A DNA stretch of 64,000 nt from a virus (IMGVR_UViG_3300030390_001134:167-64166); one strand, 5' to 3'. Shown: positions 13,562-59,036, counted from the stretch's first letter. Translations and numbers: made by a program. The notes: generated by a model not told the origin, from the letters alone.

Positions 13562-13763
13562 GATCACGATAGGTAAAGACTACAAAAATGACTCCATGCA
13601 CTATGCCGTAGGGCAAGAAGTGTATGGAGGTCATACTATTTGTGATATACTAGAAGAGGAAGATAAGTACTCTATTTATATACGCAAAGACAAAGCAGTC
13701 ATACCTTGGAAGGACTTTAATAAAAACATGGCTATATCTGTTGAGTATAATCTTCAGTACTAA
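13542..13763 (+). CDS. hypothetical protein
   Basis: 73-aa ORF coupled to both neighbours. Confidence 0.75.
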   Translation: MSHLIRKITIGKDYKNDSMHYAVGQEVYGGHTICDILEEEDKYSIYIRKDKAVIPWKDFNKNMAISVEYNLQY

Positions 13764-40800: not shown

Positions 40801-43800
40801 ATGGAAAGAGCTTCATAGAGGTTCTTGCTGAAGTTGAAATAGCTAAAGAGGTTTCAAAGATGAACCTAGCTATAGATCAAAGAAACGAGAGCACTAAGCT
40901 TATGGACCAAGCTATTAAAGCATCTCGCTCTAGCACTAAGCCTAAAGGTATAACAGTGTTAGACTTTGATGACACGTTGGCTACAACTAAGTCTAATGTT
41001 ATAGTCACACCTCCAGACCCCGCAACTATCCCTGGTAAACGCCGCACAAAGAAAAGCAAAATCTCCGATGAGTATGCGGTGACTCCGGGCAAGGATAAGT
41101 TTTATAAGAGTGATTCTTATTTAGACCCAGCTCCTGTAGATCCTGCCCCAGCACCTGGTTCAAGAGAACTAAAGGATATAATAGGCAAGGACCTATCAGT
41201 AGGTGGGACTTTTTATGCCGCTAAACCTTTTAAACTGAGTGCTGAAGAGTTTGCTAAGCACGGTAGCGAGTTGCTAGCGCAAGGGTATAAGTTTGATTTT
41301 TCTGAATTCAACAAGGTTGTTGACGGCAAGACGGCGCCATTATTTAACAAAGCTATGAAGCTTTCTGGAAAGTTCGGAACAGAGAACATGTTTATCCTTA
41401 CAGCTAGAGCGCCTCAATCAGCAAAAGCTATTAAACAGTTTTTAGATGCGCAAGGTTTAAAGATACCTCTTAAAAATATTACAGGTCTAGGTAAGTCAGA
41501 AGCTTCGGCTAAAGCTAACTGGATAGCGGAGAAAGTGGGTGAGGGTTACAATGACTTTTACTTTGCTGACGACGCTATGCAAAACGTCAAGGCGGTTAAG
41601 GATATGCTTGATCAGTTTGATGTAAAAGGTAAAGTTCAACAAGCGAGATTAAAGTTTAGTAATTCTGGCCCTAAGAAGATGTCTGATATAATAGACGAAA
41701 GTCAATTAGACCTTAATAAGATACTAGAGGAAACTAAAGGTGTAGGTAAAGACAAAAGATTCTCAGCTGCAAAAGCTAGGCAGCGTGGTAAGAACAAAGG
41801 TAAGTTTAAGTTCTTTGTTCCACCTTCAGCAGATGACTTTGCTGGGTTGATGTATTCGTTTATGGGTAGAGGTAAGCAAGGTAATAAGCACCACGCGTGG
41901 TTTAAGGAAAACCTATTCGACCCGTTCTCAAAAGGCATGAGACGCCACAAGATGGTTCAGCAGCAGGTGGCCAATGATATGAAAAACCTTAGAAAGGCTA
42001 TGCCTGACGTAAGGAAGAAGCTAGGTAAAAAAGTACCTGGCACAGAGTACACACACGAGGATGCTATAAGAATATACAACTGGAGCCAAGCGGGTCTTGA
42101 TATACCTGGGTTATCTCAAGCTGACGCTACAGCTTTGATAAACGCGATTGAGTCTGATCCTAAGCTTCAAGCATTTGCACAAGGTGTTAATTCTATAAGT
42201 GAAACTCCGGGTGGCATGGTAGAACCTGGTCCTCACTGGACAGGAGGTAATATAGCTTTAGATTTAAAAGAAGCGTTAGACAACGCTAGGGGTAATAACC
42301 TTAGGCAATGGGTGGAGAATAAAAATATTATATTCTCTGAAGCTAACATGAATAAGATAGAAGCTTTGTATGGCTCTAACTTTAGAGAAGCGTTAGAAGA
42401 CAGTCTATACCGTATGGAAACTGGTAGCACGCAGAACGTGGGTAAAGATAGGTTGTTAAATAACTTTACAGCTTGGATACACGGTTCTATAGGTACTACT
42501 ATGTTCTTGAATGCTAGGTCAGCCATGTTGCAGATGATCTCTAATGTTAACTTTGTTAACTGGAGTGATAACAATATGCTTAAAGCTGCTGGTGCATTTG
42601 CTAATCAAAAGCAGTATTGGAAAGACGTGTCTATGATATTCAACTCTCCTTTCTTAAAGCAAAGAAGATCTGGTATTCAGACAGATGTTAACGCAGCTGA
42701 GCTTCTAGCTCAAATCAAGGATTCTAAAAACAAAATGAAAGCAGCTGTAGCTTACTTGCTACAACTTGGTTTTACCCCTACACAGATTGCGGATAGTTTA
42801 GCCATCGCAACAGGTGGCGCTACGTTTTACAGGAACAGAATTAAGACATACCTAAAAGATGGTATGTCCCAGGTTGATGCTGAAACAAAAGCCTTTGAGG
42901 ATATGATGGAGATAGCGGAGGAAACTCAGCAATCCACTAGAGCAGATAAAATATCTCAGCAGCAAGCTTCTCCTATTGGTAAGTTTATACTAGCTTTCCA
43001 GAATACACCTATGCAGTATAACAGGTTGATTAAAAAAGCGGCGCAAGATCTAGTCAATGGTAGGGGTGACGTAAAAGCTAACGTATCTAGGATTGTTTAC
43101 TACGGTGGTATTCAAAACTTAATATTCTATGGGTTGCAAACCGCGTTGTTTGCAGCTTTATTCAGCGATGACGAAGAGGACGAAATAACGGCTAAAAAAA
43201 CAGAAAGAGTCATGAACGGCATGGTTGATACCTTGCTACGTGGCTCAGGCATCGCTGGCGCCGCTGTGTCAACTGTTAAAAATGTTATTCTAAAGTTCAT
43301 GAAGGAGAGCGAAAAGATGAATGACGATAAGTACTATACGGATCCTGACTGGGGCAATGTAGTTATAGAGGGTCTTAATATATCTCCGCCTATAGGTATT
43401 AAGGCTAGAAAAATTTATAGCGGCCTTAAAACATGGGAGTACAATAAAGATGTCATAGATCACATGAGTAAGACAGATCTAGATAATCCTATATACGATG
43501 CTATTTCTAGTGTAACAGAGGCAGCAACTAACGTGCCTTTAAGTAGAGCTTACAGTAAGTATCAAAACATATCAGAGGCACTGAACGCAGAGCATGAGGC
43601 GTGGAAAAGAATAGCTATGCTATTGGGTTGGAACAAATGGAGTTTTGGAATTAAAAACCAAGATGTAGTTACAGCTAAAAGCGAGGTTAAAGAAATAAAA
43701 GCTGAAGAGGCTGAGGAGAGAAAGGAGATGAAGAAGCTTGCCAAAGAAGTTGAAAAGCAAGCTGAAAACGAGGTTATTGAAGAAGACAACTTGTTAGATC

Positions 43801-44033
43801 AGCGAGAAGAAAGAGAGCAAAGTCAAGAAGATATAAAATGTGCGGCGGTTACCAGCTCAGGAAAGCGCTGTGGTAAGAAAGTTAAAGGTGACGGAAACTA
43901 CTGTACTATACACGAAACCGTTGAGGCAAGAAAGGATGGTAAAAAAATACAGTGCGCTCACATTAAGCCAGATGGTAAAAGGTGTAAAATGAAAACAACA
44001 AATAAATCAGGTAAATGCTACTATCACGATTAA
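34824..44033 (+). CDS. giant internal virion (polyvalent) protein: zincin, sigma-region-2-like, HAD phosphatase, C-terminal CCCH fingers
   Basis: HELLH at ~aa 1054; VLDFDDTL/ILTAR/FADD HAD motifs from ~aa 2047; FQNTPMQY helical C-terminal domain; two terminal CCCH repeats. Confidence 0.75.
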   Translation: MNGQQQGYPEELQIVVDKMKANREPQFNIDIMVQSYYASKQDAGSGPEPTPVAGQQEVEENVGIPKESSIDQEWWDNAGLDRSSYFDEQGNMLPPPSVLTTVDPGWDQIRLEEENAIKAQAALESAESYDSTDISEGEGDSEYSTQSIVEDSVATEEQRKENIEKASADYQEFIDASFAYNSITDEDKAREADLVSKWEKDGLAMVMGEIPTINYFGLGSGNMLTVDNYVAYKRRRARNPESMDFDPTLPSYIEVKHNEYESNPTFRDAKINIAKSEYAKKAGLSESETKKLLKANIDPANAESMEPFSTFDEDGNVVSFENEYKNIDPNQSGRILSDGSKLGDKLRKGVEDKLTAQNDAESQRANVKKFVEALPSYSKTSATGAVVKAATGLDLGLFLKSDAQKLIEKRAKEDFKLLESNVQKIASEADVVGSQIKNNGALLTKAHEDLKALGDVRAKINELKNGEYTTEAQVKNANQKISALVNDYTAKFNAFDKYRKANSTLNNAAARIGAEIKDLDVKVKDLGAFTEFIGDNHQIGTQMAWSAANAAIDLGQGFMDFAYMANPFGALSDELIDWAGEDSLAASIVEGVRIAAAPMTGGLSLYSGDRRDDMRDAIDNFQENVSSKIEQPPAFSSIKDVGSFAEWAAVTGIAQAPQLALMYASGGTSGLLLMGAGAAGTKYNEMEENRETYRESGGLYGIDHSFASMLAVSTFTGAVEALSEKVTLGQLNAAGRTLKNEVFKASGRRGIAKYLRNDVFTKDSFRSTLRGGKDLFEEGGSEFLATVGGNALTIASGDKSVGLWDGGLESFVTGAMISSTIKTPSLFRSAVAPFQSKTTSEILNNNLDIIERNRAVASGETGASADAVQFAQDIIAEAVHENKLALELDIKRVDAYEDADKSRLINIESDNIDLRRKATAIVQDETLDESQKKEMINDLQTKLDNNIAEKQAIIEKYPEDVVNKKYSETSLGRQPASQTFEENIEFAKKHSALYGLEVNDTMSPAEIEAYLLKKGYSEKDAKDGRKSDGFIVGDDIIINREVAMAKNAVTVGSHELLHGILRKAMGDKALSTQVISQLKKSIGSQWSVVQQRIDENYTPEYMALNPDEYLTLVSDAIAKGEITYQETVFDKLRDSLNEIPIFKKYFPNIKFKTGRDVYRFLREYNKSIHKGALATDIVKATQTDEDVERTEDQVKKDGIKKSLTSDQKKAAAKNVKELGAKETNKSWRRGGADAAIKDIKDNGYFDALIASKYKVKPVPRDFVEKVYSEITPHIKRFKPEQNDNLFAYINSQIGNKAGNVYNKEYKVDEAMRGSKDIDAKTSEGAPVIQVAAETDTDVTSFEEQDMSMQAQAKRTKLAEQGKSESDRYSGLRTELGLEKPMMDKVRQAVMKTFGTKLPDVNSKKFKAALQKAYRTELKKPIQDMIGKGATYETFLAENFPTVFKFLPKETLLQMERNVAPENRIFTKSERITKPTEVDKLISDGLLPKETNRLSGPTLITKLPYPGSKKVMAYFRGQNMDNALGYKVGASTLGTRKDKLAMEMGVELGFDATMETVQQPEVAERRESILELTGQVQAENDVSVMAKQIDRDPNIKFSNTSNKSPSDIFADQTMSLVKDVVNNGFETVFTEDGKLVEGYPGDFSKKAVDFAYNLWDDGTLHDGKSIGFKAKVALSESFSNEIKETYKSDGNLRNNEAALDRLYEAVSVLTTKLGPEVMDAIGFEIAGFKNRVMDSPKLKRDGTPGRFYERLQKLSKRVRESVGASLPFGLDLKGVSIMNKNAGAKSIFGKVQKILNEDITRDAKLVKLAELQPEIDAANEANIKLAKHISTVLINGVRDGSIDQVSALHLLQAQTGIVNGFRGLSRLDLITVLDGSQKPGETHPHYKRIYRELSKTMPKDQAKIEAIKRTGTKGEHLAPNSNTMFEIAELFNSSETATELENKLTNIFRGHSQMHTTIDLTKVMDKKGGETNDTDFNRVKFLDQVDINSTVRADGKSFIEVLAEVEIAKEVSKMNLAIDQRNESTKLMDQAIKASRSSTKPKGITVLDFDDTLATTKSNVIVTPPDPATIPGKRRTKKSKISDEYAVTPGKDKFYKSDSYLDPAPVDPAPAPGSRELKDIIGKDLSVGGTFYAAKPFKLSAEEFAKHGSELLAQGYKFDFSEFNKVVDGKTAPLFNKAMKLSGKFGTENMFILTARAPQSAKAIKQFLDAQGLKIPLKNITGLGKSEASAKANWIAEKVGEGYNDFYFADDAMQNVKAVKDMLDQFDVKGKVQQARLKFSNSGPKKMSDIIDESQLDLNKILEETKGVGKDKRFSAAKARQRGKNKGKFKFFVPPSADDFAGLMYSFMGRGKQGNKHHAWFKENLFDPFSKGMRRHKMVQQQVANDMKNLRKAMPDVRKKLGKKVPGTEYTHEDAIRIYNWSQAGLDIPGLSQADATALINAIESDPKLQAFAQGVNSISETPGGMVEPGPHWTGGNIALDLKEALDNARGNNLRQWVENKNIIFSEANMNKIEALYGSNFREALEDSLYRMETGSTQNVGKDRLLNNFTAWIHGSIGTTMFLNARSAMLQMISNVNFVNWSDNNMLKAAGAFANQKQYWKDVSMIFNSPFLKQRRSGIQTDVNAAELLAQIKDSKNKMKAAVAYLLQLGFTPTQIADSLAIATGGATFYRNRIKTYLKDGMSQVDAETKAFEDMMEIAEETQQSTRADKISQQQASPIGKFILAFQNTPMQYNRLIKKAAQDLVNGRGDVKANVSRIVYYGGIQNLIFYGLQTALFAALFSDDEEDEITAKKTERVMNGMVDTLLRGSGIAGAAVSTVKNVILKFMKESEKMNDDKYYTDPDWGNVVIEGLNISPPIGIKARKIYSGLKTWEYNKDVIDHMSKTDLDNPIYDAISSVTEAATNVPLSRAYSKYQNISEALNAEHEAWKRIAMLLGWNKWSFGIKNQDVVTAKSEVKEIKAEEAEERKEMKKLAKEVEKQAENEVIEEDNLLDQREEREQSQEDIKCAAVTSSGKRCGKKVKGDGNYCTIHETVEARKDGKKIQCAHIKPDGKRCKMKTTNKSGKCYYHD

Positions 44034-45058
44034 CATTAATAACAGCAATGATGCTGTCCTGTTTAATATGCTCAGGACAAGGTTTAAAAAAAGCGTTTAA
44101 GTTCTCTACGTTTTACACTGCTGTTAACGGAGGCAACTCTGTTGCTGATCAAACAGTGTGGTCTGTGGGTAATGGTTTAAACTTTACTAACATAGAAACT
44201 CCTTACGACTACAGTCTTACAATGGGTGTTCGTAAAATAGCTAGGTTTGGATACGAGAACAGAGCACAAACCTTCTATGATGGAAGTGAAACATCATGGG
44301 CAGACGGAGCTAATGTAGGTAAACGTAATGGCTTAGAGTTTTTAGCTGAGGTTAAATACAAAAGACAAATGGGTCAAGAGTTTCTTGATCAAAACCATTT
44401 CCTAAGATATGTAGGGGATAAGTACATTGTTAAAGGAGAATATCTACAAGATGGCTTTGCAGATATATCTTACTTTGAGATCTCACAGAGATACAGGCAG
44501 AAGATAGGTGAGAAGTTTTCTTTTAATATAGGTATAGCTCAAAGAGCTTCTGAGCCGTATGGTTACAACCCGCTAGCTGAGTGGTCATTGAATAACAATG
44601 ATATACACTACACATACTTAGCTTTACAAGAGGGTTACACAGTGGACGTACCTAACAACGAATACTTTTCTCCTGATGGAGAAAGCGTAGCTACAAGTAC
44701 AGAGGTGTGGGAGGCGGTTGTTATACCTGAGGTTATATCTGACTATGTAGACAGGAAAAGATCAGGGCTAGACAAACTGATACAACACTCTGTCATAGCT
44801 GGGTTTGACTACTACCACTACACAGATGACTTTTGGTTGCACGCTTGGGGTAACGTTATGCCCTACCATTTAGACAGCGGAAATGAATTTATGTATCACA
44901 ACTCTGTAGGTGGGCAATGGCTTGATTATTCAGGTGGGGCAATAGTTGGGTACAGGTATAATAAACATTTAGGATTATTCTTAGAAGGTAAATATAACAA
45001 GTACTGGAATAGAGAGTGGTACAACTTTAAGTGTGGTGTAAATTATGTAATCTTTTAA
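44015..45058 (+). CDS. outer-membrane beta-barrel protein
   Basis: Signal peptide ending ..CSG|Q, alternating aromatic/hydrophobic strands, C-terminal GVNYVIF (BAM-type terminal Phe). Confidence 0.65.
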   Translation: MLLSRLTLITAMMLSCLICSGQGLKKAFKFSTFYTAVNGGNSVADQTVWSVGNGLNFTNIETPYDYSLTMGVRKIARFGYENRAQTFYDGSETSWADGANVGKRNGLEFLAEVKYKRQMGQEFLDQNHFLRYVGDKYIVKGEYLQDGFADISYFEISQRYRQKIGEKFSFNIGIAQRASEPYGYNPLAEWSLNNNDIHYTYLALQEGYTVDVPNNEYFSPDGESVATSTEVWEAVVIPEVISDYVDRKRSGLDKLIQHSVIAGFDYYHYTDDFWLHAWGNVMPYHLDSGNEFMYHNSVGGQWLDYSGGAIVGYRYNKHLGLFLEGKYNKYWNREWYNFKCGVNYVIF

Positions 45059-45061
45059 GAT

Positions 45062-45343
45062 ATGGCTAAAGATGGATACGAAGGACCTCTAAAAATTACA
45101 GAGGAAGCTTACGCAAGGCGTAACAGAAAAATGAGAAAGGATAATCCTGGTATGGCTAGCAGAAAAACTAGTGGTACTCATCCTGATAGAGTTAAGTTTG
45201 CCTGTAGGTTTGGAGCTCAAAACCACCCTATGAAAACCGCTAAAGGAGAGCCGACTCCTTACGCTATGGCATTAAAAAAATGGGGTTTTGGTAGCGCGCA
45301 AGCTGCTAAAAACTTTTGCAAAAAACATAAAAAGAAAAAGTAA
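45062..45343 (+). CDS. small basic phage protein
   Basis: RVKFACRF...ALKKWG; K/R-rich. Confidence 0.7.
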   Translation: MAKDGYEGPLKITEEAYARRNRKMRKDNPGMASRKTSGTHPDRVKFACRFGAQNHPMKTAKGEPTPYAMALKKWGFGSAQAAKNFCKKHKKKK

Positions 45344-45609
45344 TGGCTTTTAAAATGAAAGGTATTCCACACTTTACTAAAAATAAAGAGGAGTGGAAAG
45401 GAGCAACGCATAAAATGGATGACGGATCGTTGCACACGGGAAAGACTCATAACAAGGACAGTAAAAAGCTCTTTCACAAAGGTGATTCCGCTTTAAGAAA
45501 ACGAGGTCTATGGGACAACATACATGCTAAAAGAAAACGCGGTGGTAAAATGCGTAAAAAAGGAGATCCAGGAGCTCCAACAGAAAAAGCAATAAGAGAC
45601 TCTCAATAA
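45343..45609 (+). CDS. basic MAFK-tagged protein
   Basis: MAFKMKG; HKMDDGSLHTGKTH; GLWDNIHAKRKRG..MRKKGDPGAPT. Confidence 0.7.
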   Translation: MAFKMKGIPHFTKNKEEWKGATHKMDDGSLHTGKTHNKDSKKLFHKGDSALRKRGLWDNIHAKRKRGGKMRKKGDPGAPTEKAIRDSQ

Positions 45610-45616
45610 ATAAAAC

Positions 45617-45901
45617 ATGGCAAAGCAAATAAGTGAGGACACTAAGGTAACATTAGACCTCAAGACGATTGGAATAGCGGGTGCAGGGTTAGCTGCTTTA
45701 ATAGGGATGTGGTTTGCATTACAAGCTGATATAGCTCTGGCTAAAGAATTACCTGAGCCTACACCACCAGAAATTTCACGTATGGAATTTGATATGAAGG
45801 ATAAGCTAGTGCGCCAAACTATTATGACAACTCAAGAAGACGTTAAGGAATTGAAAGATGACTTAGATCGCATTGAAGAGAAAATAGACAAACTAAAATA
45901 A
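45617..45901 (+). CDS. single-pass membrane protein with C-terminal coiled coil
   Basis: TM IGIAGAGLAALIGMWFAL; KELKDDLDRIEEKIDKLK. Confidence 0.7.
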   Translation: MAKQISEDTKVTLDLKTIGIAGAGLAALIGMWFALQADIALAKELPEPTPPEISRMEFDMKDKLVRQTIMTTQEDVKELKDDLDRIEEKIDKLK

Positions 45902-45907
45902 AATATT

Positions 45908-46282
45908 ATGAGACTTAAAATAGGCTTCAAGACGGCTTTGCAGGTGTATCTTATATTGTTTTTAGCTGCGATGTTCTTTGCTAGCAGTGCTAAAGCACAG
46001 AACCCTTGCAACAGTGATATATGTGTAGTACAGTTTAACGCTAGTTGGAACGGATCTAATAGTGTAGAATACCTAGATAAATTGACTGAGTGTAACGTAA
46101 TGAACGTTAGTATCGACGAAGGCACGTGGCAGAAAGACTTTGGTATTGTTGTTGTACCTACTATTATAGTTTTTAACGGCAAGGAAGTCGAAAGGTTTCA
46201 AGCTAACATCATGATGCAGATGGAGGCTACAAAGAAAGATATACAAGGCGTTATAGACGAAATTATATATAGCGATTTTTAA
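45908..46282 (+). CDS. exported thioredoxin-fold protein lacking CxxC
   Basis: Signal peptide ..SAKA|Q; VVQFNASWNGSN in place of WCxxC; cis-Pro motif VVPTIIVFNGKEVERF. Confidence 0.7.
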   Translation: MRLKIGFKTALQVYLILFLAAMFFASSAKAQNPCNSDICVVQFNASWNGSNSVEYLDKLTECNVMNVSIDEGTWQKDFGIVVVPTIIVFNGKEVERFQANIMMQMEATKKDIQGVIDEIIYSDF

Positions 46283-46283
46283 C

Positions 46284-48422
46284 ATGAAGAGTTTTTTATT
46301 ATGTTTATTTTTAATACCACTAACGTTTCTAACTCAAGAGAGTTGGGTTAACGTAGTTGTACAAACAGATCAGTATGGAGGTGAGACGACTTGGGAGATA
46401 TATCAAGATAGTCAACTAGTAGCGGTATCACCGCCTTACCAAAACAATTCTTACAACGAAACCTTAGTTGAGTTACCCGTTGGGCAATACAACTTAGTTG
46501 TGTACGACGCTTTTGGTGATGGTATATGCTGTGACTTTGGACCTGGTTATTTTGGTTTAACAAACTCTTGTGGATTAGATACGTTTGTATATGACTTTAA
46601 CACTCCGCAGGCTACTGTATTTTTTGAGCTAACAGAATGTGAGCAACCTGTATATGGGTGTTTACAGCCTAACGCTTTAAACTACAATCCATGGGCTAAC
46701 ACCCCAACGCCGTGTAACTTTCCGCCAATGCCATGTGGTGAGGGTCAGACAAACATACTTTCGTTTTTCACACCTGATAGTTACCCAGCAGAAACAAGTT
46801 GGGAGATAACTGTTAACGGTGACTCGCTAACGTCTGGTGGTGGTGGTACAACTGGTATAACTGAACCCACGTATCACTGCGTGAACGAGGGTGATACAGT
46901 TGTAGCTAGTATATACGATTTATATGGAGATGGTATGTGTGGTACTTGTTGGGGTGGAGTAGATGGGTTTTTTAACGTAACAACACTATGTGGGGATAGT
47001 ATATTTATGGCTGGTGGTACAATGGAGTTTGATACATTATACTCAGAGCCCTATGTAGTACAACCTTGTGCGCCCGCGTTCTTAACAGGATGTACAGATA
47101 GTTTGTTTGTAGAGTATAGCCCTAATGCACAGGTTAACGATGGAAGTTGTGTGACTGAGATAGCTTTAGGTTGTATACAAGAAGATGCTCTAAACTACGA
47201 TCCACTAGCTAACACTATGGAAACAGAAAGCATGTGTAGTTATGATCTCGTTATAACAGATGGCGGGGCTGACGGGTGGTTTGGTAGTTGGCTAGGGTTT
47301 ACACAAGGTGGTAACTTGTATGGTCCATATCAAATGGGACCTGACGACGGGTATGAAGAAACGTTTGAGGTAGCTTTAAACTCTAATGAAGAGGTTAAGG
47401 TTTACTTCTTTACAGAAGGTAACGCGGAAACTACAGCTGCTCAGTGTGGGTTTAGATTAGAAGGTCCTAACGGTATTATAGCTCAGAGTGGAACTAACCC
47501 TTGGACAGATAGGTTGAAAAAATTTCCGTTCTCTTACAGTGCTACGCCTACATGTTCTAACTACTGCATTGCTCCGGTACTTGGTTGTGTTGACGTTGAA
47601 GCTTGTAACTTTGATACCTTAGCAAACGTAGACCACGGATGTGTCTACCCTATAGAATACTACGACTGTGATAACCTGTGTAACAGTGATATAGATAACG
47701 ACGGTGTGTGTGACGAGCTAGAGATAGTGGGTTGCATGGATCAAACCGCTTTTAATTATAATGAGTTAGCTACAGATCCAGCTGACTGTGAACCACTAAT
47801 ATTCGGATGTACAGATGCCACGCAGTATAACTATAACCCAGAAGCTAACACGGACAACGGTAGCTGTATTCCTTACATTGACGGTTGTACTGATAGCAAT
47901 GCCTTTAATTATGATCCGCTGGCTACTGCTGACAACGGCTCGTGTATTGAAATCGTGGAAGGGTGTGCCGATCTTCAAGCGTACAACTACGAAGTCCTAG
48001 TTAATATACCAGACCCAGAGTCTTGTTTATACGAAGCTGTAGGTTGTGTCACCGGTTTAGGTGAGCCATATGGAGATGGTTATTGGCTCAACGATATGTG
48101 CTTCGCTTGGTTGATTCAAGCTGACCCATATTGCTGCGAAGAGGAGTGGGATAACACATGTCAAGAGACATTTGATTACTGCTCCGCTACTGGTATAGAA
48201 GCTATACTAGCTAGAGATGATTTAGTGATGTACCCTAACCCAGTTGGTAACGTACTTAACATAAATAAAAACGTTGATCTAGACGTGTTCGATTCTGCAG
48301 GACGTGTTATCGTATCTAAAACAAATATAAACGCGATAGACGCATCTCTATGGGATCCAGGGATGTACACAGTGCGGATTGTTTGGAACAACCGAATTGT
48401 AATCAAAAAGATTATTAAATAA
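46284..48422 (+). CDS. secreted Cys-rich repeat protein with a T9SS type A C-terminal sorting domain
   Basis: Signal peptide; repeated D..GDG modules and GC.D..A.NY.P.A..D.GSC repeats; CTD MYPNPVGNVLNI...GMYTVRI...KKIIK (48228-48422). Confidence 0.85.
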   Translation: MKSFLLCLFLIPLTFLTQESWVNVVVQTDQYGGETTWEIYQDSQLVAVSPPYQNNSYNETLVELPVGQYNLVVYDAFGDGICCDFGPGYFGLTNSCGLDTFVYDFNTPQATVFFELTECEQPVYGCLQPNALNYNPWANTPTPCNFPPMPCGEGQTNILSFFTPDSYPAETSWEITVNGDSLTSGGGGTTGITEPTYHCVNEGDTVVASIYDLYGDGMCGTCWGGVDGFFNVTTLCGDSIFMAGGTMEFDTLYSEPYVVQPCAPAFLTGCTDSLFVEYSPNAQVNDGSCVTEIALGCIQEDALNYDPLANTMETESMCSYDLVITDGGADGWFGSWLGFTQGGNLYGPYQMGPDDGYEETFEVALNSNEEVKVYFFTEGNAETTAAQCGFRLEGPNGIIAQSGTNPWTDRLKKFPFSYSATPTCSNYCIAPVLGCVDVEACNFDTLANVDHGCVYPIEYYDCDNLCNSDIDNDGVCDELEIVGCMDQTAFNYNELATDPADCEPLIFGCTDATQYNYNPEANTDNGSCIPYIDGCTDSNAFNYDPLATADNGSCIEIVEGCADLQAYNYEVLVNIPDPESCLYEAVGCVTGLGEPYGDGYWLNDMCFAWLIQADPYCCEEEWDNTCQETFDYCSATGIEAILARDDLVMYPNPVGNVLNINKNVDLDVFDSAGRVIVSKTNINAIDASLWDPGMYTVRIVWNNRIVIKKIIK

Positions 48423-49924
48423 TGAAGTGGATCGGTGCTCATGTTATAGATAGGGACGTTAGGTTTAACACCGTAAATTTGTACCTACCAGGTGGTATTC
48501 AAGACGCGGGCTCAGACACGGATAAATTTTTAGTATATGGCGGACAAGGTCTCTTGGGTTATAGAACCGGGGCGGAGGTACTTTCTGATATAGGTGGCTT
48601 ACCTACGTCTACAAATATACTAGCATTTGACGGTTCAACTGCCAATGGTGTTTGCACTTTTAAAGATGCAGATGAGATATCTGTTGAGTCAACGCTAACT
48701 TTTGACGCATCATCAAGTCCAACGTTGACTATGGGTGCGGATGACAATGGTAGTTCATTTATAAGAAGGCTAGCTCATAGCGACGGGGCTGGCGGCATAC
48801 TACAGGTTGAAGCTGGAAGCGCTACGATTGGACAAACAAACCAAGCGGGTGGAGCCTTAAGGCTAGCTGGCGGTCAGTCAACTGGATCTGGAGCTGGAGG
48901 AAGCGTAACGCTTTTTACGTCACCAGCAGGAGGTAGCGGTGTGAGTTTGAACGGCTATACTAACTCTTGGGTGTTTGGAGCTGATGGATCTTTTACAACC
49001 GAGGGTGGTATTACAACAGGCACAACATCATTTGTTAATGCAAGTGGTGTAGTACAGGTTGCTACTCAAGGCACTATTGATCACGATTCATTGGCAAACT
49101 TTTCAGCTGACGAGCATTATACTCAAGCTAATATCGTGGCTACAGGTACTATAGCTAGTGGGACATGGGAAGGCACGGATATAGGTGTGGCTCACGGCGG
49201 AACAGGTTTATCAACTGTTGGTACTAATGAAATATTAACAGGTAACGGGACGGGGGCTTTAACATCTGAAGCTAATTTAACTTTTGCATTAGATCGTTTA
49301 ATCATTGGTGCTGATGCTGAAATAACGCCTCAGATAAGATTTAGAAACGACGAAAATACTGTCAACATTGGGGTGTCTGACTCTTCTGACAACTTAATTA
49401 GCGGCTCAGCAGACGGAGACTTTGTTATTAACTGTACAGGAGATCACAACGTTTTATTTGGTCAAAACAATGCAATAGCCGCAAAAATAGACACTGACAG
49501 TAATTTTAATATTAACCGCAGATTTACTGTTACAGGTGACACGGACGGAACATACGAAGGGGATGTAGTGTATTTTGGTGGGACAACATCTATGACAGTT
49601 GGGACTATATACCACTACAAATCTGACGGCACGTGGGAGGTGGCAAACGCTAACGCAGCGGCGACATCTGATGGTTTACTTGGTGTGGCTTTAGGTGCGG
49701 CTTCTGATACTAATGGAATGCTTTTAAGAGGTATGGTTACTTTAGATCATGACCCTGGAGCAGTTGGAGACGTTTTGTATTTAAGTAACACTAATGGGGA
49801 CGCTTCATCCACAGCCCCGTCAGACAACAACGATATAGTAAGAGTAATAGGATACTGCTTACACGCGTCAAATGGCCAGATTTGGTTTAACCCAGACAAT
49901 ACGTTTGTAGAAGTAACAGCATAA
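48422..49924 (+). CDS. tail fibre protein
   Basis: Gly/Thr-rich; GTWEGTDIGVAHGGTG fibre motif; C-terminal GVALG..GDVLYLS..VRVIGY domain. Confidence 0.7.
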   Translation: MKWIGAHVIDRDVRFNTVNLYLPGGIQDAGSDTDKFLVYGGQGLLGYRTGAEVLSDIGGLPTSTNILAFDGSTANGVCTFKDADEISVESTLTFDASSSPTLTMGADDNGSSFIRRLAHSDGAGGILQVEAGSATIGQTNQAGGALRLAGGQSTGSGAGGSVTLFTSPAGGSGVSLNGYTNSWVFGADGSFTTEGGITTGTTSFVNASGVVQVATQGTIDHDSLANFSADEHYTQANIVATGTIASGTWEGTDIGVAHGGTGLSTVGTNEILTGNGTGALTSEANLTFALDRLIIGADAEITPQIRFRNDENTVNIGVSDSSDNLISGSADGDFVINCTGDHNVLFGQNNAIAAKIDTDSNFNINRRFTVTGDTDGTYEGDVVYFGGTTSMTVGTIYHYKSDGTWEVANANAAATSDGLLGVALGAASDTNGMLLRGMVTLDHDPGAVGDVLYLSNTNGDASSTAPSDNNDIVRVIGYCLHASNGQIWFNPDNTFVEVTA

Positions 49925-50586
49925 TGCCTACTTTAAATGTAAATAGGCAGGGTGTTGGTACAGGAATTTCTAACGGTAACTTTAATACAGCTAGGACAAA
50001 CGCGGCTTCAGCTGTTACAGATGGCATTACAGGCGAGTTTGATGTTCAGTACTTTGCTACAGGTAGAACAAAGAGATTCAAAAGAGTTTTTCTACATTTT
50101 GACACAAGTGGAATAACTGGAACTGTAAGCGCAGCACACATAGACATAAATGGAGGTAGTGTAGCCAATGCTGATCCTAATGATACCATTATGATAAAAA
50201 GCACCGCTTTTGGCGGTGACGGTGGGACAGCTTTAGCTACCTCAGATCATTTTAGTTCGTTAGATTACAGCACGGCATACTCTAGTGAGTTAACTACTTG
50301 GTCAACAGGTAATAATGAATATACTTTAACAGCGGCAGCTTTAGCTGATATAAAAAACAACGATCACTTTACTTTAGCTATAGTAGATCACGATAACGAC
50401 TACGCTAATTCAGCTACTACAGGAGTTGCTGATGTTACCATAGACTTTGATGTAACGATAACCTTGGATTACACTTTAGCCGCAACCGGGTATAGCCATG
50501 ATATAAACGGTGTCGCAGCTGCTAGTATAGGAAAAGTAATAAGCGTGGCGACAGCTAATATAGGAAAAATAAATTCAGTAGATTAA
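49924..50586 (+). CDS. tail fibre-associated protein
   Basis: FLHFDTSGITG; C-terminal INGVAAASIGKV repeat. Confidence 0.6.
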   Translation: MPTLNVNRQGVGTGISNGNFNTARTNAASAVTDGITGEFDVQYFATGRTKRFKRVFLHFDTSGITGTVSAAHIDINGGSVANADPNDTIMIKSTAFGGDGGTALATSDHFSSLDYSTAYSSELTTWSTGNNEYTLTAAALADIKNNDHFTLAIVDHDNDYANSATTGVADVTIDFDVTITLDYTLAATGYSHDINGVAAASIGKVISVATANIGKINSVD

Positions 50587-50587
50587 A

Positions 50588-50884
50588 ATGGAATACGGAT
50601 TACACCATATAACGTCAGCAACAACAACCACGTTGATACCTATACATGGATCAGGTGGAGCTATTAAATCGATAAGTATAGCCAACCAGCACGACACAAC
50701 TGCAGCGCATGTAGACTTATATTTAGATGACGGTACAAATACATCGTATATAGTAAAAAGCGCCTTGATATATTCTGGAACTGCCATGGTTTTAGATCAC
50801 AACATATCTTTTGACAATTCAGTACTAGGATTAAAACTAACCACTGTTGGAAGTGGTTTACCTATATCAGTAATTATAAAATAA
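50588..50884 (+). CDS. putative structural protein
   Basis: IKSISIAN..VDLYL beta-rich 98 aa. Confidence 0.6.
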   Translation: MEYGLHHITSATTTTLIPIHGSGGAIKSISIANQHDTTAAHVDLYLDDGTNTSYIVKSALIYSGTAMVLDHNISFDNSVLGLKLTTVGSGLPISVIIK

Positions 50885-51489
50885 TGTACACAAGAGAACA
50901 AATTAAAGAGGCTTTAGAAGCTAAAGGTTATAAGTTTTTTGAAGAAGGAGACTACAACGTGAATATCGTTGGAATAAGAAACTCTGAAACAGAAGGCAAA
51001 GTCACAAACAGATTCGATGACTTAATGACGGTGTCGTACAAGATCGACGGAGAGTGGCAGTATCACGAGTTTGATTGCACTACAGACCCAGGCACTCATT
51101 GGGTTGACAATTGCGCTTACTCTAAAAAAGGGGTGGCTATACTTAGGCCTGATCAATACCGCAAGTCACACAAAATTAGAAAGCACCTAGGGCAATACGA
51201 AGCTTTAGGACAGCAAAATCCTGTTACAGTGTATAGAGATCCAAATAAGGATGCGGTGTATGACCTTAACGAAGACACCACTCAAACAGGTTTGTTTGGT
51301 ATTAACATTCACAGGGCTTCAAAATACGCGGGTAAGAAATCCACCCGAATAAACAAGTGGTCTGCTGGTTGTCAAGTGATTGCAGCTAATGATGATTGGA
51401 CTAAATTTATGAAGATCATGAGAAAAGCTAGACTTATCTGGAGCAACAACTTTACATACACTTTAATAAATTCTAAAGATATTACATGA
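50884..51489 (+). CDS. probable endolysin, L,D-transpeptidase (YkuD)-like His/Cys fold
   Basis: NIVGIRN..FDD..TTDPG..GINIH..WSAGCQV (HxnSxGC catalytic signature). Confidence 0.65.
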   Translation: MYTREQIKEALEAKGYKFFEEGDYNVNIVGIRNSETEGKVTNRFDDLMTVSYKIDGEWQYHEFDCTTDPGTHWVDNCAYSKKGVAILRPDQYRKSHKIRKHLGQYEALGQQNPVTVYRDPNKDAVYDLNEDTTQTGLFGINIHRASKYAGKKSTRINKWSAGCQVIAANDDWTKFMKIMRKARLIWSNNFTYTLINSKDIT

Positions 51490-51845
51490 AGTACATATTC
51501 GCATTAATATTATCAATGACTTTTACTGGTTTATTCAGCCAGTGTAACCAACACGTATTCACCTCAGTAGGTGCCACAGAGTGGACGAGCTTTGAATACG
51601 TAGATTGTGATGGAGAAGATCACGCTTTTGGTTTACCTGCAGGAGGATATACTATAATATTCTGCGCAGACATAGGTACAGCTTTTGCTTTAAACGGAGA
51701 TGGGTTTGTATATCCATTAATGACAGAGCATCCTAACTACGCATCATGTGCGCAACCTGTTTGTCAGGGGGACTTCGATGAGGATGGTGTAGTGGGAGTA
51801 AGCGATTTACAAGTGTTTTTATCAAACTACGGAGCATGCGATTAA
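51486..51845 (+). CDS. secreted protein with a C-terminal dockerin/EF-hand-like motif
   Basis: Signal peptide ..GLFS|Q; CQGDFDEDGVVGVSDLQVFLSNYG. Confidence 0.7.
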   Translation: MKYIFALILSMTFTGLFSQCNQHVFTSVGATEWTSFEYVDCDGEDHAFGLPAGGYTIIFCADIGTAFALNGDGFVYPLMTEHPNYASCAQPVCQGDFDEDGVVGVSDLQVFLSNYGACD

Positions 51846-53041
51846 ATTTACTTGGCATACTATGGATCTTATATAGTATATTTATATTCAACAATAGCGC
51901 CTATGGCCAATGTGATGTGGCTATAAGTAACTGGGATGCGCTGACGGGTGATATTCTTGTTGAAGCGATTAACAGTGAGAATTGTGGCTGCAATGAATTT
52001 ACAACTGAAGGCAACACATGTGAAAGTAGCGCTAGTTCTCATGTAAATAATAACGAAACGGTATCTCATATAGTTTTAGGGCTGCACGTGGAGGGGTTGG
52101 ATTATAACTGGATGGATTGTTTAACAGGTGTTAATCATCCAGGTTGGACGTTTAAAGTTTTTACTCTTTATGGTAATCAAACTCTTAGCAATGGTGATAC
52201 TTGGGGTGCTAATGTTTATGATACAGGGGCAAGTACAAATGATTGTTGGGCAGAACTATTATCTAACGATACGCTATGTACTGAGTTAGTTGTGTGGCAG
52301 ATTAATTTATCTCGCACAGCTTTTATAGCTGACGGAGGTTGGGCGCTGAATCCAGGGTTTAACCAAACGCAGAACTACCCTGACGTTGATCTTTCTAATA
52401 ACACAGCCGTTAACTGTGCTCTACCTACGTGCGACCCTGTTTACATATACGAAACCGACACGATAGTGTTATATGATACTATCATAGAATATGTCACAGA
52501 CACTGTTATTGAATACGTGGACGTTGAGTGGATAACAACCGATACGCTGTATATAACTGAAGTTGACACGTTAATTGAATATGTCCAATTACCTACAGAT
52601 ACTGTACATGAGTATATAACTGACACTATTACGTTAGTAGAAACTGAGTATGTTGATGTTATAGTAGATAACTACGTTTATATTACTGACACTATAATAG
52701 AGTTTGTAGCTAGCACTGTTTATATCGACTGTGAAACAGGAGAGGAGTGTGGCACCTCAAGCCCTTGTGACGAGACTTCTATATACGCGCCTAATGTTGT
52801 CACGCCTAACGATGACGGGTGGAACGACACGTGGCAGGTAATTGCTGACGGAGCTTGTTGGGCTCAGTGGGAGGTAAGAGTGTACAATAGATGGGGTGGG
52901 CTAGTTTGGATCAGCGCGTCTAACATAGACGCGTGGGAAGCTAATGTAGCTACAGGTGTTTATGTATATACAATAACAGCGCACAGCGCGGTAAATACAA
53001 GTGTATTTGAATTTAACGGTACACTAACAGTACTATATTAA
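51836..53041 (+). CDS. secreted protein with a (T)DT-repeat stalk and a T9SS type B (gliding motility-associated) C-terminal domain
   Basis: Signal peptide ..SAYG|Q; ETDTIV/YDTII/VTDTV repeats; CTD IYAPNVVTPNDDGWNDTW..VYNRWGGLVW..GVYVYTI..GTLTVLY (52781-53041). Confidence 0.85.
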   Translation: MRLNLLGILWILYSIFIFNNSAYGQCDVAISNWDALTGDILVEAINSENCGCNEFTTEGNTCESSASSHVNNNETVSHIVLGLHVEGLDYNWMDCLTGVNHPGWTFKVFTLYGNQTLSNGDTWGANVYDTGASTNDCWAELLSNDTLCTELVVWQINLSRTAFIADGGWALNPGFNQTQNYPDVDLSNNTAVNCALPTCDPVYIYETDTIVLYDTIIEYVTDTVIEYVDVEWITTDTLYITEVDTLIEYVQLPTDTVHEYITDTITLVETEYVDVIVDNYVYITDTIIEFVASTVYIDCETGEECGTSSPCDETSIYAPNVVTPNDDGWNDTWQVIADGACWAQWEVRVYNRWGGLVWISASNIDAWEANVATGVYVYTITAHSAVNTSVFEFNGTLTVLY

Positions 53042-53053
53042 TTAAAAGTAACT

Positions 53054-55042
53054 ATGGCAATACCAACAGATAGTTTTGTAAAAGTACAGTCCGCGGACAC
53101 GCCGACAAAGGAGATAACATCTATTAGGAAGCAACCTAATGTGTCTTATCATACTATAGGCGCTATTGTTGCAGATGTTGTTGCAGCGGCTAACGTCTCA
53201 GCTACGGGTGATTTTGATACCGTAGCCTCCATGAAAGCTGGGACATTAGCAAATGGAGATGTCGCTAGAACAAAGGGCTACACTACCATAGGTGATGGTG
53301 GTTTGTGTGTGTACAACATAACAGATGCCGATCCTGGTGGAGTAGAGCACGTTATAACACTTAACAATGGTAAATACGCCACAGCTCAGTTTAACGGCGC
53401 TACAGTACCGCAACAGTGGGGCGTTGTGCATGACGCGTCTGGTTCTGCAGCAGCGAATGTAACTGCATTGAATGCTATGTTCCAGTATCAAAGAACCCAT
53501 TTGTGTGTAGTTCACTTTTTAGGAGGGGATTATTATGTTAATGACACTATCACTCTACCAACTTACCTTAACGTAGGTAATAGAATACCAGAAGACTCTT
53601 ACGTTATAAACTTCAACAGCGCGGTTCTTAGACCAACAGTCGCTGACAAGGTTGTACTTCAAAGACCAGAGGTTTCAGCTGCAGAAAGTGGTAGTCTTAA
53701 AATAACAAACTTAACAGTAAACGCTAATAGTCAGTCAGGCTGTACAGGGCTTCAGATTATATCTTCTTTCTCTTCTTTAGTATCTGGTTGTCATTTTATA
53801 GGTTTAGCTACAGGTTTAGATTTACAGTTCGGGTTAGCTACGCACGTAGAAGGCACGAGATTTACTAGTTGTTTACTAGGTACTAATTGTAGGAATACAG
53901 TAGGGGCCGGCTCCAATAACAAACAAAGCAATAGAACAAAGTTCGATAACTGCAGGTGGTACGCACCAAATAATTCGAGTGCAGACTATCAATTAAGAGT
54001 TGAACATAGTTCTGGTATAAATGTTGTGGATTGTATATTTGAAGGGCATCATACTTCAGAGGCAGATATATATGTGGACGCAACAGCTACCACAGTTAAA
54101 GATATTTCTATACAAAGAGTCCACGTAGAGTCTGTAGACTCAAGCCATTCAGGTGATAATGTTTTTCTCGAAGTCGACGGTAGTGGAGGAGGAGCTCCTT
54201 TTGTGAAAGTTATAGATATATACCAGCAAGATCCAGGCACCCCGGGTCGAACTATGGTTAAAGCTACGGCTTGTCAAGTAACGTTTTCTTCGTCTTGGTA
54301 TCAAGATATAAAAATGGAAAACATTGGGTCAAAATGGGATTTCCCTGATAGACTTAAAAACTACTATATGATAGCGGGTACACCACAAATCGACTGGGAC
54401 ACGTCAGGTTCGGGTACTATACCTACTGCTTTACATATTGAGCCTGATCTAGTAGATCTGCACGGTATAAGTTCTGGTAGAGGCTGGAGCCTAATGGGTG
54501 ACAGCAGTAAGGGCACTTATTCTTTAAAGTCATACATAAATAGGGCTGAATACGAAAAAGTATATGATGGGGATGCTGCTACTGTAGCTAGTAACCTATC
54601 TCACTTTAAAATAAGTTGGAATGGCTCTTACTTTATATCAGCGAAAGGTAGCGGAACAGGCGCTGTTCGACACTTTAGTTTTTTTAATGATGTAGGTGTG
54701 CAAAACAGGTTGTATCTCACCAACGGTGATAATGTTGATGATGGAGCAGGGGGAACGACGATAACTAGATTTGATCATACATACCAAACAAATATACACC
54801 ACCATCCTCAGTATACGGATAACTATATGTCTTTGAATTTACCTGGAGGCAATAACTATACAGGTACTAAAGCAATAACATTTCCAAATGCGACTGGAGA
54901 CTTAACGGCTTATACAGGGACAGCAGCTCCTGCACATAATGGCACTGGGGCAAAAGGTGAAATTAGGTATAACGGTGGTAAAGTATATATATGCGTAGAC
55001 ACCGACACGTGGGTTAGAATAGCCGCTGATACTAGTTGGTAG
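53054..55042 (+). CDS. tailspike/depolymerase with a pectate-lyase-like beta-helix
   Basis: FDTVASMK..TKGY..GDGG N-terminal module, PQQWGV..D...N..ALNA, parallel beta-helix repeats, C-terminal YICVDTDTWVR. Confidence 0.75.
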   Translation: MAIPTDSFVKVQSADTPTKEITSIRKQPNVSYHTIGAIVADVVAAANVSATGDFDTVASMKAGTLANGDVARTKGYTTIGDGGLCVYNITDADPGGVEHVITLNNGKYATAQFNGATVPQQWGVVHDASGSAAANVTALNAMFQYQRTHLCVVHFLGGDYYVNDTITLPTYLNVGNRIPEDSYVINFNSAVLRPTVADKVVLQRPEVSAAESGSLKITNLTVNANSQSGCTGLQIISSFSSLVSGCHFIGLATGLDLQFGLATHVEGTRFTSCLLGTNCRNTVGAGSNNKQSNRTKFDNCRWYAPNNSSADYQLRVEHSSGINVVDCIFEGHHTSEADIYVDATATTVKDISIQRVHVESVDSSHSGDNVFLEVDGSGGGAPFVKVIDIYQQDPGTPGRTMVKATACQVTFSSSWYQDIKMENIGSKWDFPDRLKNYYMIAGTPQIDWDTSGSGTIPTALHIEPDLVDLHGISSGRGWSLMGDSSKGTYSLKSYINRAEYEKVYDGDAATVASNLSHFKISWNGSYFISAKGSGTGAVRHFSFFNDVGVQNRLYLTNGDNVDDGAGGTTITRFDHTYQTNIHHHPQYTDNYMSLNLPGGNNYTGTKAITFPNATGDLTAYTGTAAPAHNGTGAKGEIRYNGGKVYICVDTDTWVRIAADTSW

Positions 55043-58686: not shown

Positions 58687-59036
58687 TGCTTTTTTCTTTT
58701 TCGGGCATTACTTATTTCTATATTCATACCATACCCTAGCGGAGAAAAGTATACGTTATCTTTGCTTTCAAACGTGTCGTGGTTGTGGTCGCCGTCGTCA
58801 TAAAACGTAGTTACATCTCTAAACCTTCTCTTCTTGTCCCAAAAGTGCAGGCACATTACTTCGCCAGAGTCAACTCTAAGAGTTGTAACATCAGCCAGTG
58901 GCTCTCTATCTATAACCTCGCTGGTATCAAAGTCAAAGTTAATAATTTCATCAAGGGTTATCATGACACACAGCGTGTCTTGCGCGCTTATCGTAGCGCA
59001 AACGAGCATAAATGCTATTGTTGTTATATGTTTCAT
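58683..59036 (-). CDS. secreted hypothetical protein
   Basis: Signal peptide MKHITTIAFMLVCATISA|Q. Confidence 0.65.
   Translation of the reverse strand: MKHITTIAFMLVCATISAQDTLCVMITLDEIINFDFDTSEVIDREPLADVTTLRVDSGEVMCLHFWDKKRRFRDVTTFYDDGDHNHDTFESKDNVYFSPLGYGMNIEISNARKRKKQ

Follow-up and report, generated by a model that had tools for sequence, protein, structure and literature searches.

Predicted type IX secretion cargo of both sorting classes, and an outer-membrane barrel linked to one of them, in an uncultured phage probably infecting Flavobacteriia

The DNA considered here is a 64,000-nucleotide stretch of a viral genome (IMGVR_UViG_3300030390_001134:167-64166), that is, bases 167-64166 of a 64,166-base IMG/VR virus record which CheckV rates as 98% complete. 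This whole stretch is referred to below as the window. Between 44 and 53 kilobases (kb) the window holds a series of open reading frames (ORFs), named here by their first base, all of which lie at the coordinates given in the list that follows, on the + strand and tightly packed. Two would encode cargo for Bacteroidota's type IX secretion system (T9SS), one for each class of C-terminal sorting domain (CTD), i.e., type A and type B, and a third encodes a predicted outer-membrane (OM) beta-barrel. An earlier note on this DNA, made from its sequence alone, had read the whole of 44015-53041 as a single module for remodelling the host surface. The main features are as follows.

44015..45058, + strand: phage-specific OM beta-barrel (predicted), 347 amino acids (aa); signal peptide, Q past the cleavage region, C-terminal ...NYVIF
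45617..45901, + strand: single-pass membrane protein with a coiled-coil-like C-terminal tail, 94 aa; hydrophobic segment at residues 17-35
45908..46282, + strand: exported thioredoxin-fold (Trx-like) protein lacking the CxxC loop, 124 aa; from its family profile and PF00085
46284..48422, + strand: 712 aa, predicted to be T9SS type A cargo; between signal peptide and CTD it has three beta-sandwich domains, Cys-bounded repeats, and a Cys-rich stem
48099..48182, + strand: Cys-rich helical stem, D-x-Y-C-C-x3-W-D-x2-C, directly before the CTD; near-invariant in 61 C-termini
48228..48419, + strand: type A CTD, residues 649-712; from TIGR04183, PF18962, and a fold match
51486..51845, + strand: exported Cys-rich protein, 119 aa, in which one calcium-loop motif is dockerin-like; as a neighbour of the type B cargo it is conserved
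51836..53041, + strand: 401 aa, predicted to be T9SS type B cargo; Cys-rich N-domain after the signal peptide, then a T-D-T repeat stalk of variable length and the CTD
52787..53038, + strand: type B CTD, residues 318-401; PF13585 at 53.7-54.8 bits, TIGR04131 at 33.5 bits

ORF 46284 had been described as combining a signal peptide, Cys-rich repeats, and a type A CTD, and all three are found. Its N-terminus has a hydrophobic core at residues 4-13 followed by TQ/E, a layout which is retained in homologs, and the protein possesses 40 Cys along with seven Cys-bounded 'NY' repeats. Upon running the TIGR04183 search which the earlier note had proposed, the CTD (residues 649-712 of 712) scores 42.3 bits against a cut-off of 23, and PF18962 is matched as well, at 39 bits (cut-off 27; 43.6 bits in a six-frame scan). 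Six-frame scanning of the whole phage returns exactly one type A and one type B domain. By sequence, a profile made from 61 type A C-termini finds solved T9SS CTDs, i.e., 7pzj (E 1.7e-7), 8glk_D (9.4e-6), 8glj_D, and gingipain R2.

An AlphaFold model of ORF 46284, built from 18 homologs (pLDDT 75, pTM 0.39), consists of beta-sandwiches at approximately residues 19-116, 155-253, and 317-420, with Cys-rich linkers, then a small helical Cys-rich domain at 605-642, which is the stem, and lastly a terminal sandwich at 649-711. With Foldseek, that terminal sandwich matches 8glk_D (probability 1.00, target TM-score 0.73, root-mean-square deviation [rmsd] 2.7 over 73 columns, 32% identity), chain D of 8GLK being the CTD of the substrate NucA as captured in the Flavobacterium johnsoniae T9SS translocon. 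A second aligner similarly places it upon NucA (Z 8.7, rmsd 2.2, 67 residues aligned) as well as upon RemZ (Z 8.5), RgpB (8.4), FspA (8.4), mirolase (7.8), RemA (7.4), and PorZ (7.3). That ORF 46284 carries a real type A T9SS sorting domain is confirmed, that is, by profile matches and predicted fold together. The passenger, i.e., what precedes the CTD, matches only generic beta-sandwich arrays, with no enzyme fold among its fold matches, and in a protein atlas it finds only viral hypothetical clusters, plus a weak MAM lead (0.81).

For ORF 51836 the proposed signal peptide, 'DT' stalk, and type B CTD likewise are recovered, with an N-terminus which by hydropathy and inspection is signal-peptide-like, ending AYG/QC, with eight 'DT' at residues 196-300 versus four in the remainder of the protein, and with a match to PF13585 (CHU_C) that at 53.7 bits passes its cut-off of 27. 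Columns of the type B CTD which are invariant are P319, N320, T323, P324, D327, G328, N330, D331, C341, and W342, and further R352, W353, G354, W367, Y376, and G395; five conserved motifs, A-E, of the type B CTD are required for secretion, as described in PMC12618676. A profile built from the phage family's type B domain matches 93 ORFs, these found in 75 of 80 bacterial type B loci. Bacterial relatives of ORF 51836 itself align over residues ~311-400 only (27-42% identity, nearly all from Bacteroidota), and no bacterial relative of its passenger was found. At 90% identity that passenger family falls into 406 clusters, with PF13585 on almost all of those listed, and every listed homolog with a type B CTD retains signal peptide and CTD, down to 30% identity. 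Against the PDB the type B family profile has no match at E <= 1, and for the head of the protein the protein atlas offers no usable match. Two uncultured huge phages, LR745206.1 and LR756502.1 (635 and 642 kb), are matched weakly by the type B CTD in tblastn (E 4e-3 and 9e-3, 29-35% identity), and so type B-like domains may occur in further phage lineages.

Immediately before the type B gene lies ORF 51486, the 119-aa protein, whose alignment of 19 sequences has 21 invariant columns including six Cys. The earlier description of this protein as secreted and dockerin-like stands in part. It has a signal peptide along with a single D-x-D-x-D-G-x-V-x3-D-L loop, as seen upon inspection, but no Pfam dockerin match at E <= 1 (TSP_3 only, at E 0.06), nor the duplicated segment of a dockerin. 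In loci L056-L059 this protein is 74% identical versus 37% for the cargo, with the order of the two genes swapped. A complex model of the type B cargo (residues 25-401) with the 119-aa protein (19-119) has an ipSAE of 0.00, which is uninformative as to binding.

ORF 44015 was presented previously as a beta-barrel ending in Phe, and this description is borne out. Its AlphaFold model (pLDDT 74, pTM 0.67) has 13-14 strands along with a conserved helical insert at residues 181-250, and of 86 Foldseek matches at E <= 0.001 those listed are OM barrels. The best fold matches are to 12-stranded barrels, e.g., Tsx (Z 14.8, rmsd 3.8, 192 residues aligned), with others being the EstA autotransporter beta-domain (Z 13.4), KdgM (13.0), and NanC (12.5), and with pOmpT, LpxR, and OMPLA at Z 10.5-11. 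The identification of ORF 44015 as an OM beta-barrel is confirmed by this modelled fold as well as by its sequence, with signal peptide and a C-terminal G-[IV]-N-Y-x-I-F kept in every one of the 26 aligned members whose sequence extends to the ends in question. Homologs number 3653 at E <= 0.001, forming 309 clusters at 50% identity, and the best 120 of them are 65-93% identical, 278-362 aa in length (mostly 338-362), found on contigs of at most 91 kb, and without a Pfam domain. ORF 44015 itself has no Pfam, NCBIfam, or PHROG match, there is nothing in Pfam for 26 family members, and by sequence against the PDB the family finds nothing better than E 0.24. In 401 genomes sampled from the host class no member of the family was detected (with a positive control run), nor did tblastn find one in 50,697 phage records, and megablast of the 9-kb region against phages gives no match.

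In terms of what such a barrel might be doing, it is helpful to recall that, per PMC12618676, type A CTDs are all handled by PorV while type B CTDs need a PorP/SprF-type shuttle, and that type B cargo are described in PMC9143113 as staying bound to PorP-like proteins at the surface. The earlier note had suggested that the barrel could be such a PorP/SprF-type partner for the type B cargo, a suggestion which has to be given up. PF11751 (PorP/SprF) has no match in the phage at E <= 10, and none to ORF 44015 at E <= 1, with each of five Bacteroidota genomes serving as positive controls yielding 7-20 matches (5/5). A PorP/SprF profile built from those five genomes' genes finds none of the 138 window ORFs and none of 1368 ORFs in 91 viral loci; among 80 bacterial type B loci, nine have a gene immediately downstream of the cargo which this profile does match. 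With hhalign the barrel family and PorP/SprF align at 10% probability, over the signal peptide only (a split-family control giving 100%), and in none of 80 barrel loci is there a type B gene. PorP/SprF and PorV also are absent from the listed barrel fold matches, though they possibly are missing from or under-represented in the library. The barrel and type B genes are 6.8 kb apart in the window.

Two further roles for the barrel were considered. One is as a catalytic barrel, as suggested by its resemblance to OMPLA, LpxR, and pOmpT (Z 10.5-11) together with an invariant S259 and near-invariant H276, an idea which was dropped since by strand register these residues are not neighbours. The other is as the OM partner of a two-component spanin, a partner which is a lipobox-bearing lipoprotein encoded together with lysis genes. 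This the barrel does not resemble: its signal is of the signal peptidase I (SPI) type, with Q, without a lipobox, and without a conserved Cys at the cleavage site, and a lysin homolog is present within the locus in just 5 of 80 barrel loci.

Between barrel and type A cargo lie, among others, two smaller genes. ORF 45908 had been called an exported thioredoxin fold, which is upheld, its signal peptide being seen by scan and its fold by family. That is, on its own ORF 45908 reaches thioredoxin only at E 0.008, which is below threshold, but its family profile matches 200 solved thioredoxin-type sequences in the PDB at E <= 1, the best at 5.2e-9, and 18 of 23 members match PF00085 at E <= 0.01. 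In place of the active site's W-C-x-x-C the family has W-N-x-x-N, the CGPCR loop aligns to a gap, and CxxC occurs anywhere in just 2 of 72 members; judged from these alignments, the family is a true thioredoxin fold lacking the CxxC loop. ORF 45617 does possess the one hydrophobic segment (residues 17-35) expected of a membrane protein, with the coiled-coil part of that earlier claim read from sequence and weak Pfam matches only. By inspection its layout is i-spanin-like, i.e., an N-terminal transmembrane segment and a periplasmic helical tail. The family has 24 invariant columns across 23 sequences, and against the PDB it finds chance-level matches only, with no solved relative.

To what extent do these genes travel together? 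Relatives were gathered as 11 viral loci for type A, as 80 kept of 88 confirmed stretches for type B, and as 80 kept of at least 581 confirmed stretches for the barrel. The occurrence of the window's genes among the barrel loci is as follows.

Membrane coiled-coil gene: 75/80 barrel loci
Trx-like gene: 72/80 barrel loci
Match to the type A protein: 70/80 barrel loci
C-terminal type A domain (own profile): 59/80 barrel loci
119-aa gene or type B gene: 0/80 barrel loci
Type B domain (own profile): 0/80 barrel loci

The 44-53 kb region, judging from these co-occurrences, consists not of one module, as had been supposed, but of two units, with barrel, membrane coiled-coil, and Trx-like genes (the 'trio') travelling with the type A cargo and with the type B cassette separate. 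As found upon surveying related phages for co-occurrence, which the earlier note had recommended, a type A ORF lies within 3 kb of the barrel gene in all 37 loci that have at least 6 kb of flank on both sides, and type A ORFs are on the barrel's strand in 60 of 60 cases. The 20 barrel loci lacking a type A ORF all stop within 6 kb of the barrel gene to one side. Gene order varies, i.e., cargo before or after the trio, or trio before the barrel, but the neighbourhood is conserved. These cargo all have the stem in common, with its motif seen at 57 of the 80 barrel loci and at 10 of the 11 type A loci. Among 1119 ORFs from bacterial loci, 16 of them type A-bearing, not one has it. This first unit, that is, barrel plus membrane coiled-coil, Trx-like, and type A genes, is core to a large clade of uncultured phages.

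The second unit, i.e., the 119-aa protein plus the type B cargo, looks to be a mobile accessory cassette, as it occupies different genome positions in relatives: beside terminase or portal, within the structural block, or past the lysin (as in the window and in locus L013). A 119-aa homolog is present in 51 of 80 type B loci. Of the same 80 loci, 49 have further genes that the window has too (a terminase in 33, a portal in 23), and 8 combine both CTD classes, as do 4 of 11 type A loci. Six viral contigs of 102-199 kb (L055, L057-L059, L070, and L073), which may be large phages or else records with host contamination, have type B homologs, mostly with the 119-aa partner, and no other window gene. 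Domains, folds, conservation, and linkage are in this manner demonstrated.

The phage itself is podovirus-like, infecting marine Bacteroidota, probably of the class Flavobacteriia. A portal search matched 87 phage records, all at <60% identity, with hosts Flavobacterium (68), Cellulophaga (15), Tenacibaculum (2), and Maribacter (1), plus one uncultured record; the named hosts all are Flavobacteriia, which agrees with the earlier proposal of a T9SS-bearing Bacteroidota host. The window codes for large terminase, portal, and virion proteins, and also for ribonucleotide reductase, primase-helicase, thymidylate synthase, MazG, and exonuclease. GroEL (E 7e-133) and a GroES-like protein are encoded at 6995-8563 and 13763-14353, with GroEL/GroES found likewise in Maribacter phage Panino and in MW202828. 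There was no integrase among 30 window ORFs scanned against PHROGs, and a lytic lifestyle is plausible.

Two giant ORFs, of 2643 and 3069 aa, also are present. In the first (24439-32370) the C-terminal domain of the crAss muzzle protein is matched weakly (25.1 bits, cut-off 27), which may point to a remote structural connection with crAss-like podoviruses. The second (34824-44033) has no Pfam match at E <= 0.01; by eye its translation contains H-E-x-x-H (HELLH) and D-x-D-x-T (LDFDDT) motifs as well as two Cys-rich, K/G-rich repeats at the C-terminus, and its 3' end shares 19 bases with the start of the barrel gene. Two further features lie among the genes of the region though outside of its units.

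45062..45609, + strand: a pair of short, very basic ORFs (93 aa and 88 aa); an insertion (indel), outside the module
50884..51489, + strand: endolysin-like protein, 201 aa; phrog_3000 at 2e-31, phrog_33083 'endolysin' at 8e-11; outside both units

The basic ORFs have homologs in 7 and 3 of 80 barrel loci, respectively, with relatives' contigs skipping ~45061-45617, and they show a weak DUF6321 match and phrog_16028. ORF 45343 contains a short motif which recurs in several PHROGs without an assigned function, portions of long proteins among them.

With regard to export, a crude hydropathy scan of 78 ORFs finds nine with a hydrophobic N-terminus, seven of which read as a signal peptide plus Q: ORFs 44015, 45908, 46284, 51486, and 51836 along with 3219-3494 (- strand) and 58683-59036 (- strand). 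The latter two, of 91 aa (AFT/QTD) and 117 aa (ISA/QDT), lie among early or replication genes. Gln at +1 after signal peptidase I cleavage is described as a Bacteroidota 'Q-rule' in PMC5837995 and PMC10653852, and the rule is noted for Porphyromonas phage proteins in PMC10367356. A crude regular expression places Q past the hydrophobic core for barrel homologs in 77 of 79 cases, for Trx-like ones in 60 of 72, and for those of the cargo in 35 of 60, and the type A neighbours likewise retain both signal peptide and CTD.

What might all of this be for? The reading which we prefer, and to which we assign a probability of roughly 0.62, is that phage cargo are exported via the host's T9SS and displayed on the surface of the infected cell. 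The phage, that is, probably re-dresses the cell which it has infected. From the observations above we infer export through the T9SS, surface location, contact between barrel and cargo, and phage benefit. At least seven phage proteins would be exported by Sec, five of them encoded at 44-53 kb and two of these bearing sorting domains that the host T9SS should recognise. The host Sec translocon and signal peptidase I would bring the proteins into the periplasm, from which the host SprA translocon would hand the type A protein on to PorV. With the type B protein, as the phage encodes no PorP/SprF-type shuttle, a host one would have to be borrowed, in the manner of orphan type B cargo. Both passengers have more the look of binding modules than of enzymes, type A with its three beta-sandwich domains and Cys-knotted repeats, type B with a Cys-rich head upon a repeat stalk, and the outcome most likely would be lectin- or adhesin-like phage proteins on display. 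Candidate benefits to the phage would be excluding other phages, keeping progeny off debris, or sticking the phage-infected cell (virocell) to particles. Receptor masking, jamming, adhesion, and grazer avoidance, as put forward in the earlier note, would be candidate functions as well.

More tentatively, and with a probability that we would place well short of even, the barrel, perhaps aided by the membrane coiled-coil and Trx-like proteins, may be a dedicated partner or anchor for the stem of the cargo, thereby supplying an anchoring step. A still more specific version, which is on balance doubtful, is of the trio as a phage-built docking station, with the barrel's helical insert binding the Cys-rich stem of the cargo following T9SS export, without the host PorU/PorZ complex, and so holding variable lectin-like heads.

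A number of observations weigh against display at the infected-cell surface. Signal peptides were called by inspection and a crude hydropathy scan, such that export is a matter of prediction. Just 32 of the 61 barrel-linked C-termini reach TIGR04183 at E <= 0.001, and the TIGR04131 search which the earlier note had proposed falls short for ORF 51836, at 33.5 bits or 1.5 bits below the cut-off of 35, even as PF13585 passes at 53.7. Among barrel-linked cargo (loci L203-L282) there are two C-terminal sub-types, with 86-93 or 56-62 residues past the stem motif, and the 56-62-residue sub-type may be not a full CTD but a reduced or divergent sorting signal. The barrel is without detectable link to T9SS components, whether by NCBIfam models (none at E <= 1), PF11751, or hhalign. 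In the two closest deposited relatives the barrel was not found and there is no type A domain, so the barrel/type A module would seem to be dispensable for some phages of the wider group. The genes sit in the late structural block, between giant virion-type and fibre-like proteins, which is an unusual site for exported accessory genes. Passenger domain 155-267 resembles the calcium-dependent CBM60 at only Z 7.7, within a range that the tool rates as common, and this is a lead only. RNA-library contigs (run X19) are 90-95% alike with a share of 0.06, which is no proof of transcription. Lastly, type B shuttles are highly specific, as reported in PMC12618676, and a phage type B cargo lacking its own shuttle therefore may go unsecreted in some hosts.

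The strongest competitor, though one that we consider unlikely, is that the CTD proteins are real T9SS cargo which are released in soluble form, as binding proteins or enzymes, with an auxiliary role in nutrition or competition such as has been proposed for Cryophage, and that the trio performs some other envelope job, e.g., OM-disrupting lysis or superinfection exclusion, with adjacency reflecting late-gene clustering. The cargo of Cryophage are indeed glycoside hydrolases (PMC7468147), though in the passenger here no enzyme fold was seen. For a lytic trio one might point to the i-spanin layout of ORF 45617, together with no spanin having been recognised elsewhere among the window ORFs scanned, but the barrel's SPI-type signal without a lipobox is unlike that of o-spanins, and a lysin homolog so rarely accompanies the barrel (the 5 of 80 loci noted above). 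Conservation of 57-87% for the barrel versus 24-69% for the cargo fits an essential trio function. Mere clustering, however, is difficult to square with cargo adjoining the barrel in 37 of 37 well-flanked loci despite rearranged gene order, nor with a cargo stem motif which occurs only with the barrel.

Substantially less probable is that the CTD-like domains are Ig-like sandwiches co-opted on virion proteins such as fibres, with no export and with N-termini that are not signal peptides. Ig-like domains are common on virions (a reference cited in PMC6949934), and these genes are in the structural block, beside fibre-like ORFs 48422 and 53054. The CTD model aligns as well to unrelated Ig-like domains, e.g., that of the lambda tail tip at Z 6.8, and the Cys-bounded repeat at residues 505-552 matches a 'virion structural protein' of Synechococcus phage S-CAM3 at E 6e-3. 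Those resemblances notwithstanding, what is matched by sequence is T9SS models that are curated and, at 32-33% identity, T9SS substrates of solved structure, and signal peptide plus Q are conserved across all of the families, down to 30% identity. Cys-bounded repeat arrays suit an oxidising compartment rather than the cytoplasm, and it is to such a compartment that the 40 Cys of ORF 46284 would point. In addition, C-termini are conserved and N-terminal parts variable, the reverse of the phage receptor-binding protein pattern as given in PMC6949934.

That the region is host DNA misassembled onto a phage contig we effectively discount, typical of bacteria though sorting domains and an OM barrel are: base composition is even over the whole window, the same order recurs in independent IMG/VR contigs with giant protein, terminase, or portal, a search of 401 sampled host-class genomes did not turn up the barrel family, no bacterial relative of the type B passenger was found, and junctions are bridged in two samples. 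In particular, contigs of these two samples tile 43500-53142 with 0-3 differences, spanning the junctions of barrel with cargo (44993-46370), of cargo with the fibre-like gene (46341-49573), of lysin with the type B gene (49990-52235), and of the type B gene with the ORF after it (52357-53142), and near-identical pieces are present also in an independent study. The first tiling sample is possibly the window's own source and so is not counted as independent, and parts uncovered in X4 and X19 are not evidence of absence. As contigs from several samples bridge every junction, the region is not misassembled. Of the outcomes which the earlier note had named as speaking against its proposal, neither a failure of the CTD models to match nor a host-derived misassembly is what was found.

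Display at the infected-cell surface via the T9SS would have both precedents and contrasts among known systems. T5 Llp and lambda Lom and Bor are phage envelope proteins which alter receptor access or surface properties. Those, unlike what is seen in the window, are a lipoprotein or small 8-stranded barrels without a dedicated secretion system, and none is known to be paired with T9SS cargo. Phage-encoded type A cargo already have been published (2019, 2020). Cryophage (Bellas et al. 2020, PMC7468147) is a Bacteroidota phage encoding type A-domain proteins, variable between phage variants, for which secretion by the host T9SS was proposed, and its authors called the case unique. Whereas Cryophage encodes an endoglucanase, a GH39, and a PA14 protein as cargo, the window has seemingly non-enzymatic beta-sandwich and Cys-rich passengers, a type B cargo too, and type A tied to a trio across a large clade. 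For gut crAss-BACON 'cluster 2' phages, T9SS sorting-domain ORFs are mentioned in passing (de Jonge et al. 2019, PMC6949934), lying, as here, beside head or structural genes, with one fused to carbohydrate-binding BACON repeats; that paper reports no barrel partner or type B domain, and lineage and habitat differ.

Among bacterial counterparts, the F. johnsoniae orphan type B cargo Fjoh_1123, 1720, and 4934 use the unlinked shuttle Fjoh_1677, according to Paillat et al. 2025 (PMC12618676). They resemble the window's type B cargo in having no adjacent porP/sprF gene, with the shuttle encoded elsewhere, but with the window the cargo is phage-encoded, the shuttle would be the host's, and a 119-aa exported protein occupies the neighbouring position. 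PorP/SprF proteins (PF11751; Gorasia et al. 2022, PMC9143113) are like the phage barrel in being OM barrels of ~300-350 aa with a signal peptide and with genes beside T9SS cargo, but the phage barrel has no sequence relation to them and is linked to type A rather than to type B. It also is without the conserved linking Cys of track-linked OM proteins, as these are described in PMC12635249. In the open-access papers and preprints searched, no report was found of type B sorting domains in phages or of a barrel partner.

The main weight of these findings lies with what would be an obligatory barrel-cargo module of an abundant clade of uncultured marine phages, along with what would be a first type B case. 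Should the docking station be real, then it would represent a fourth kind of T9SS anchoring, after linkage to anionic lipopolysaccharide (A-LPS), PorP/SprF binding, and release, and one which is virus-invented and found on at least 581 IMG/VR contigs. These phages also would supply a natural probe of T9SS specificity, i.e., a type A cargo with a private barrel partner and an orphan type B cargo which borrows its host's shuttle. Flavobacteriia are the main marine degraders of algal polysaccharide, and their T9SS-built surface decides adhesion, gliding, feeding, and phage adsorption. If display of phage cargo at that surface is true, then virocells would differ in stickiness and in the entry of other phages, which bears on particle colonisation and carbon flux.

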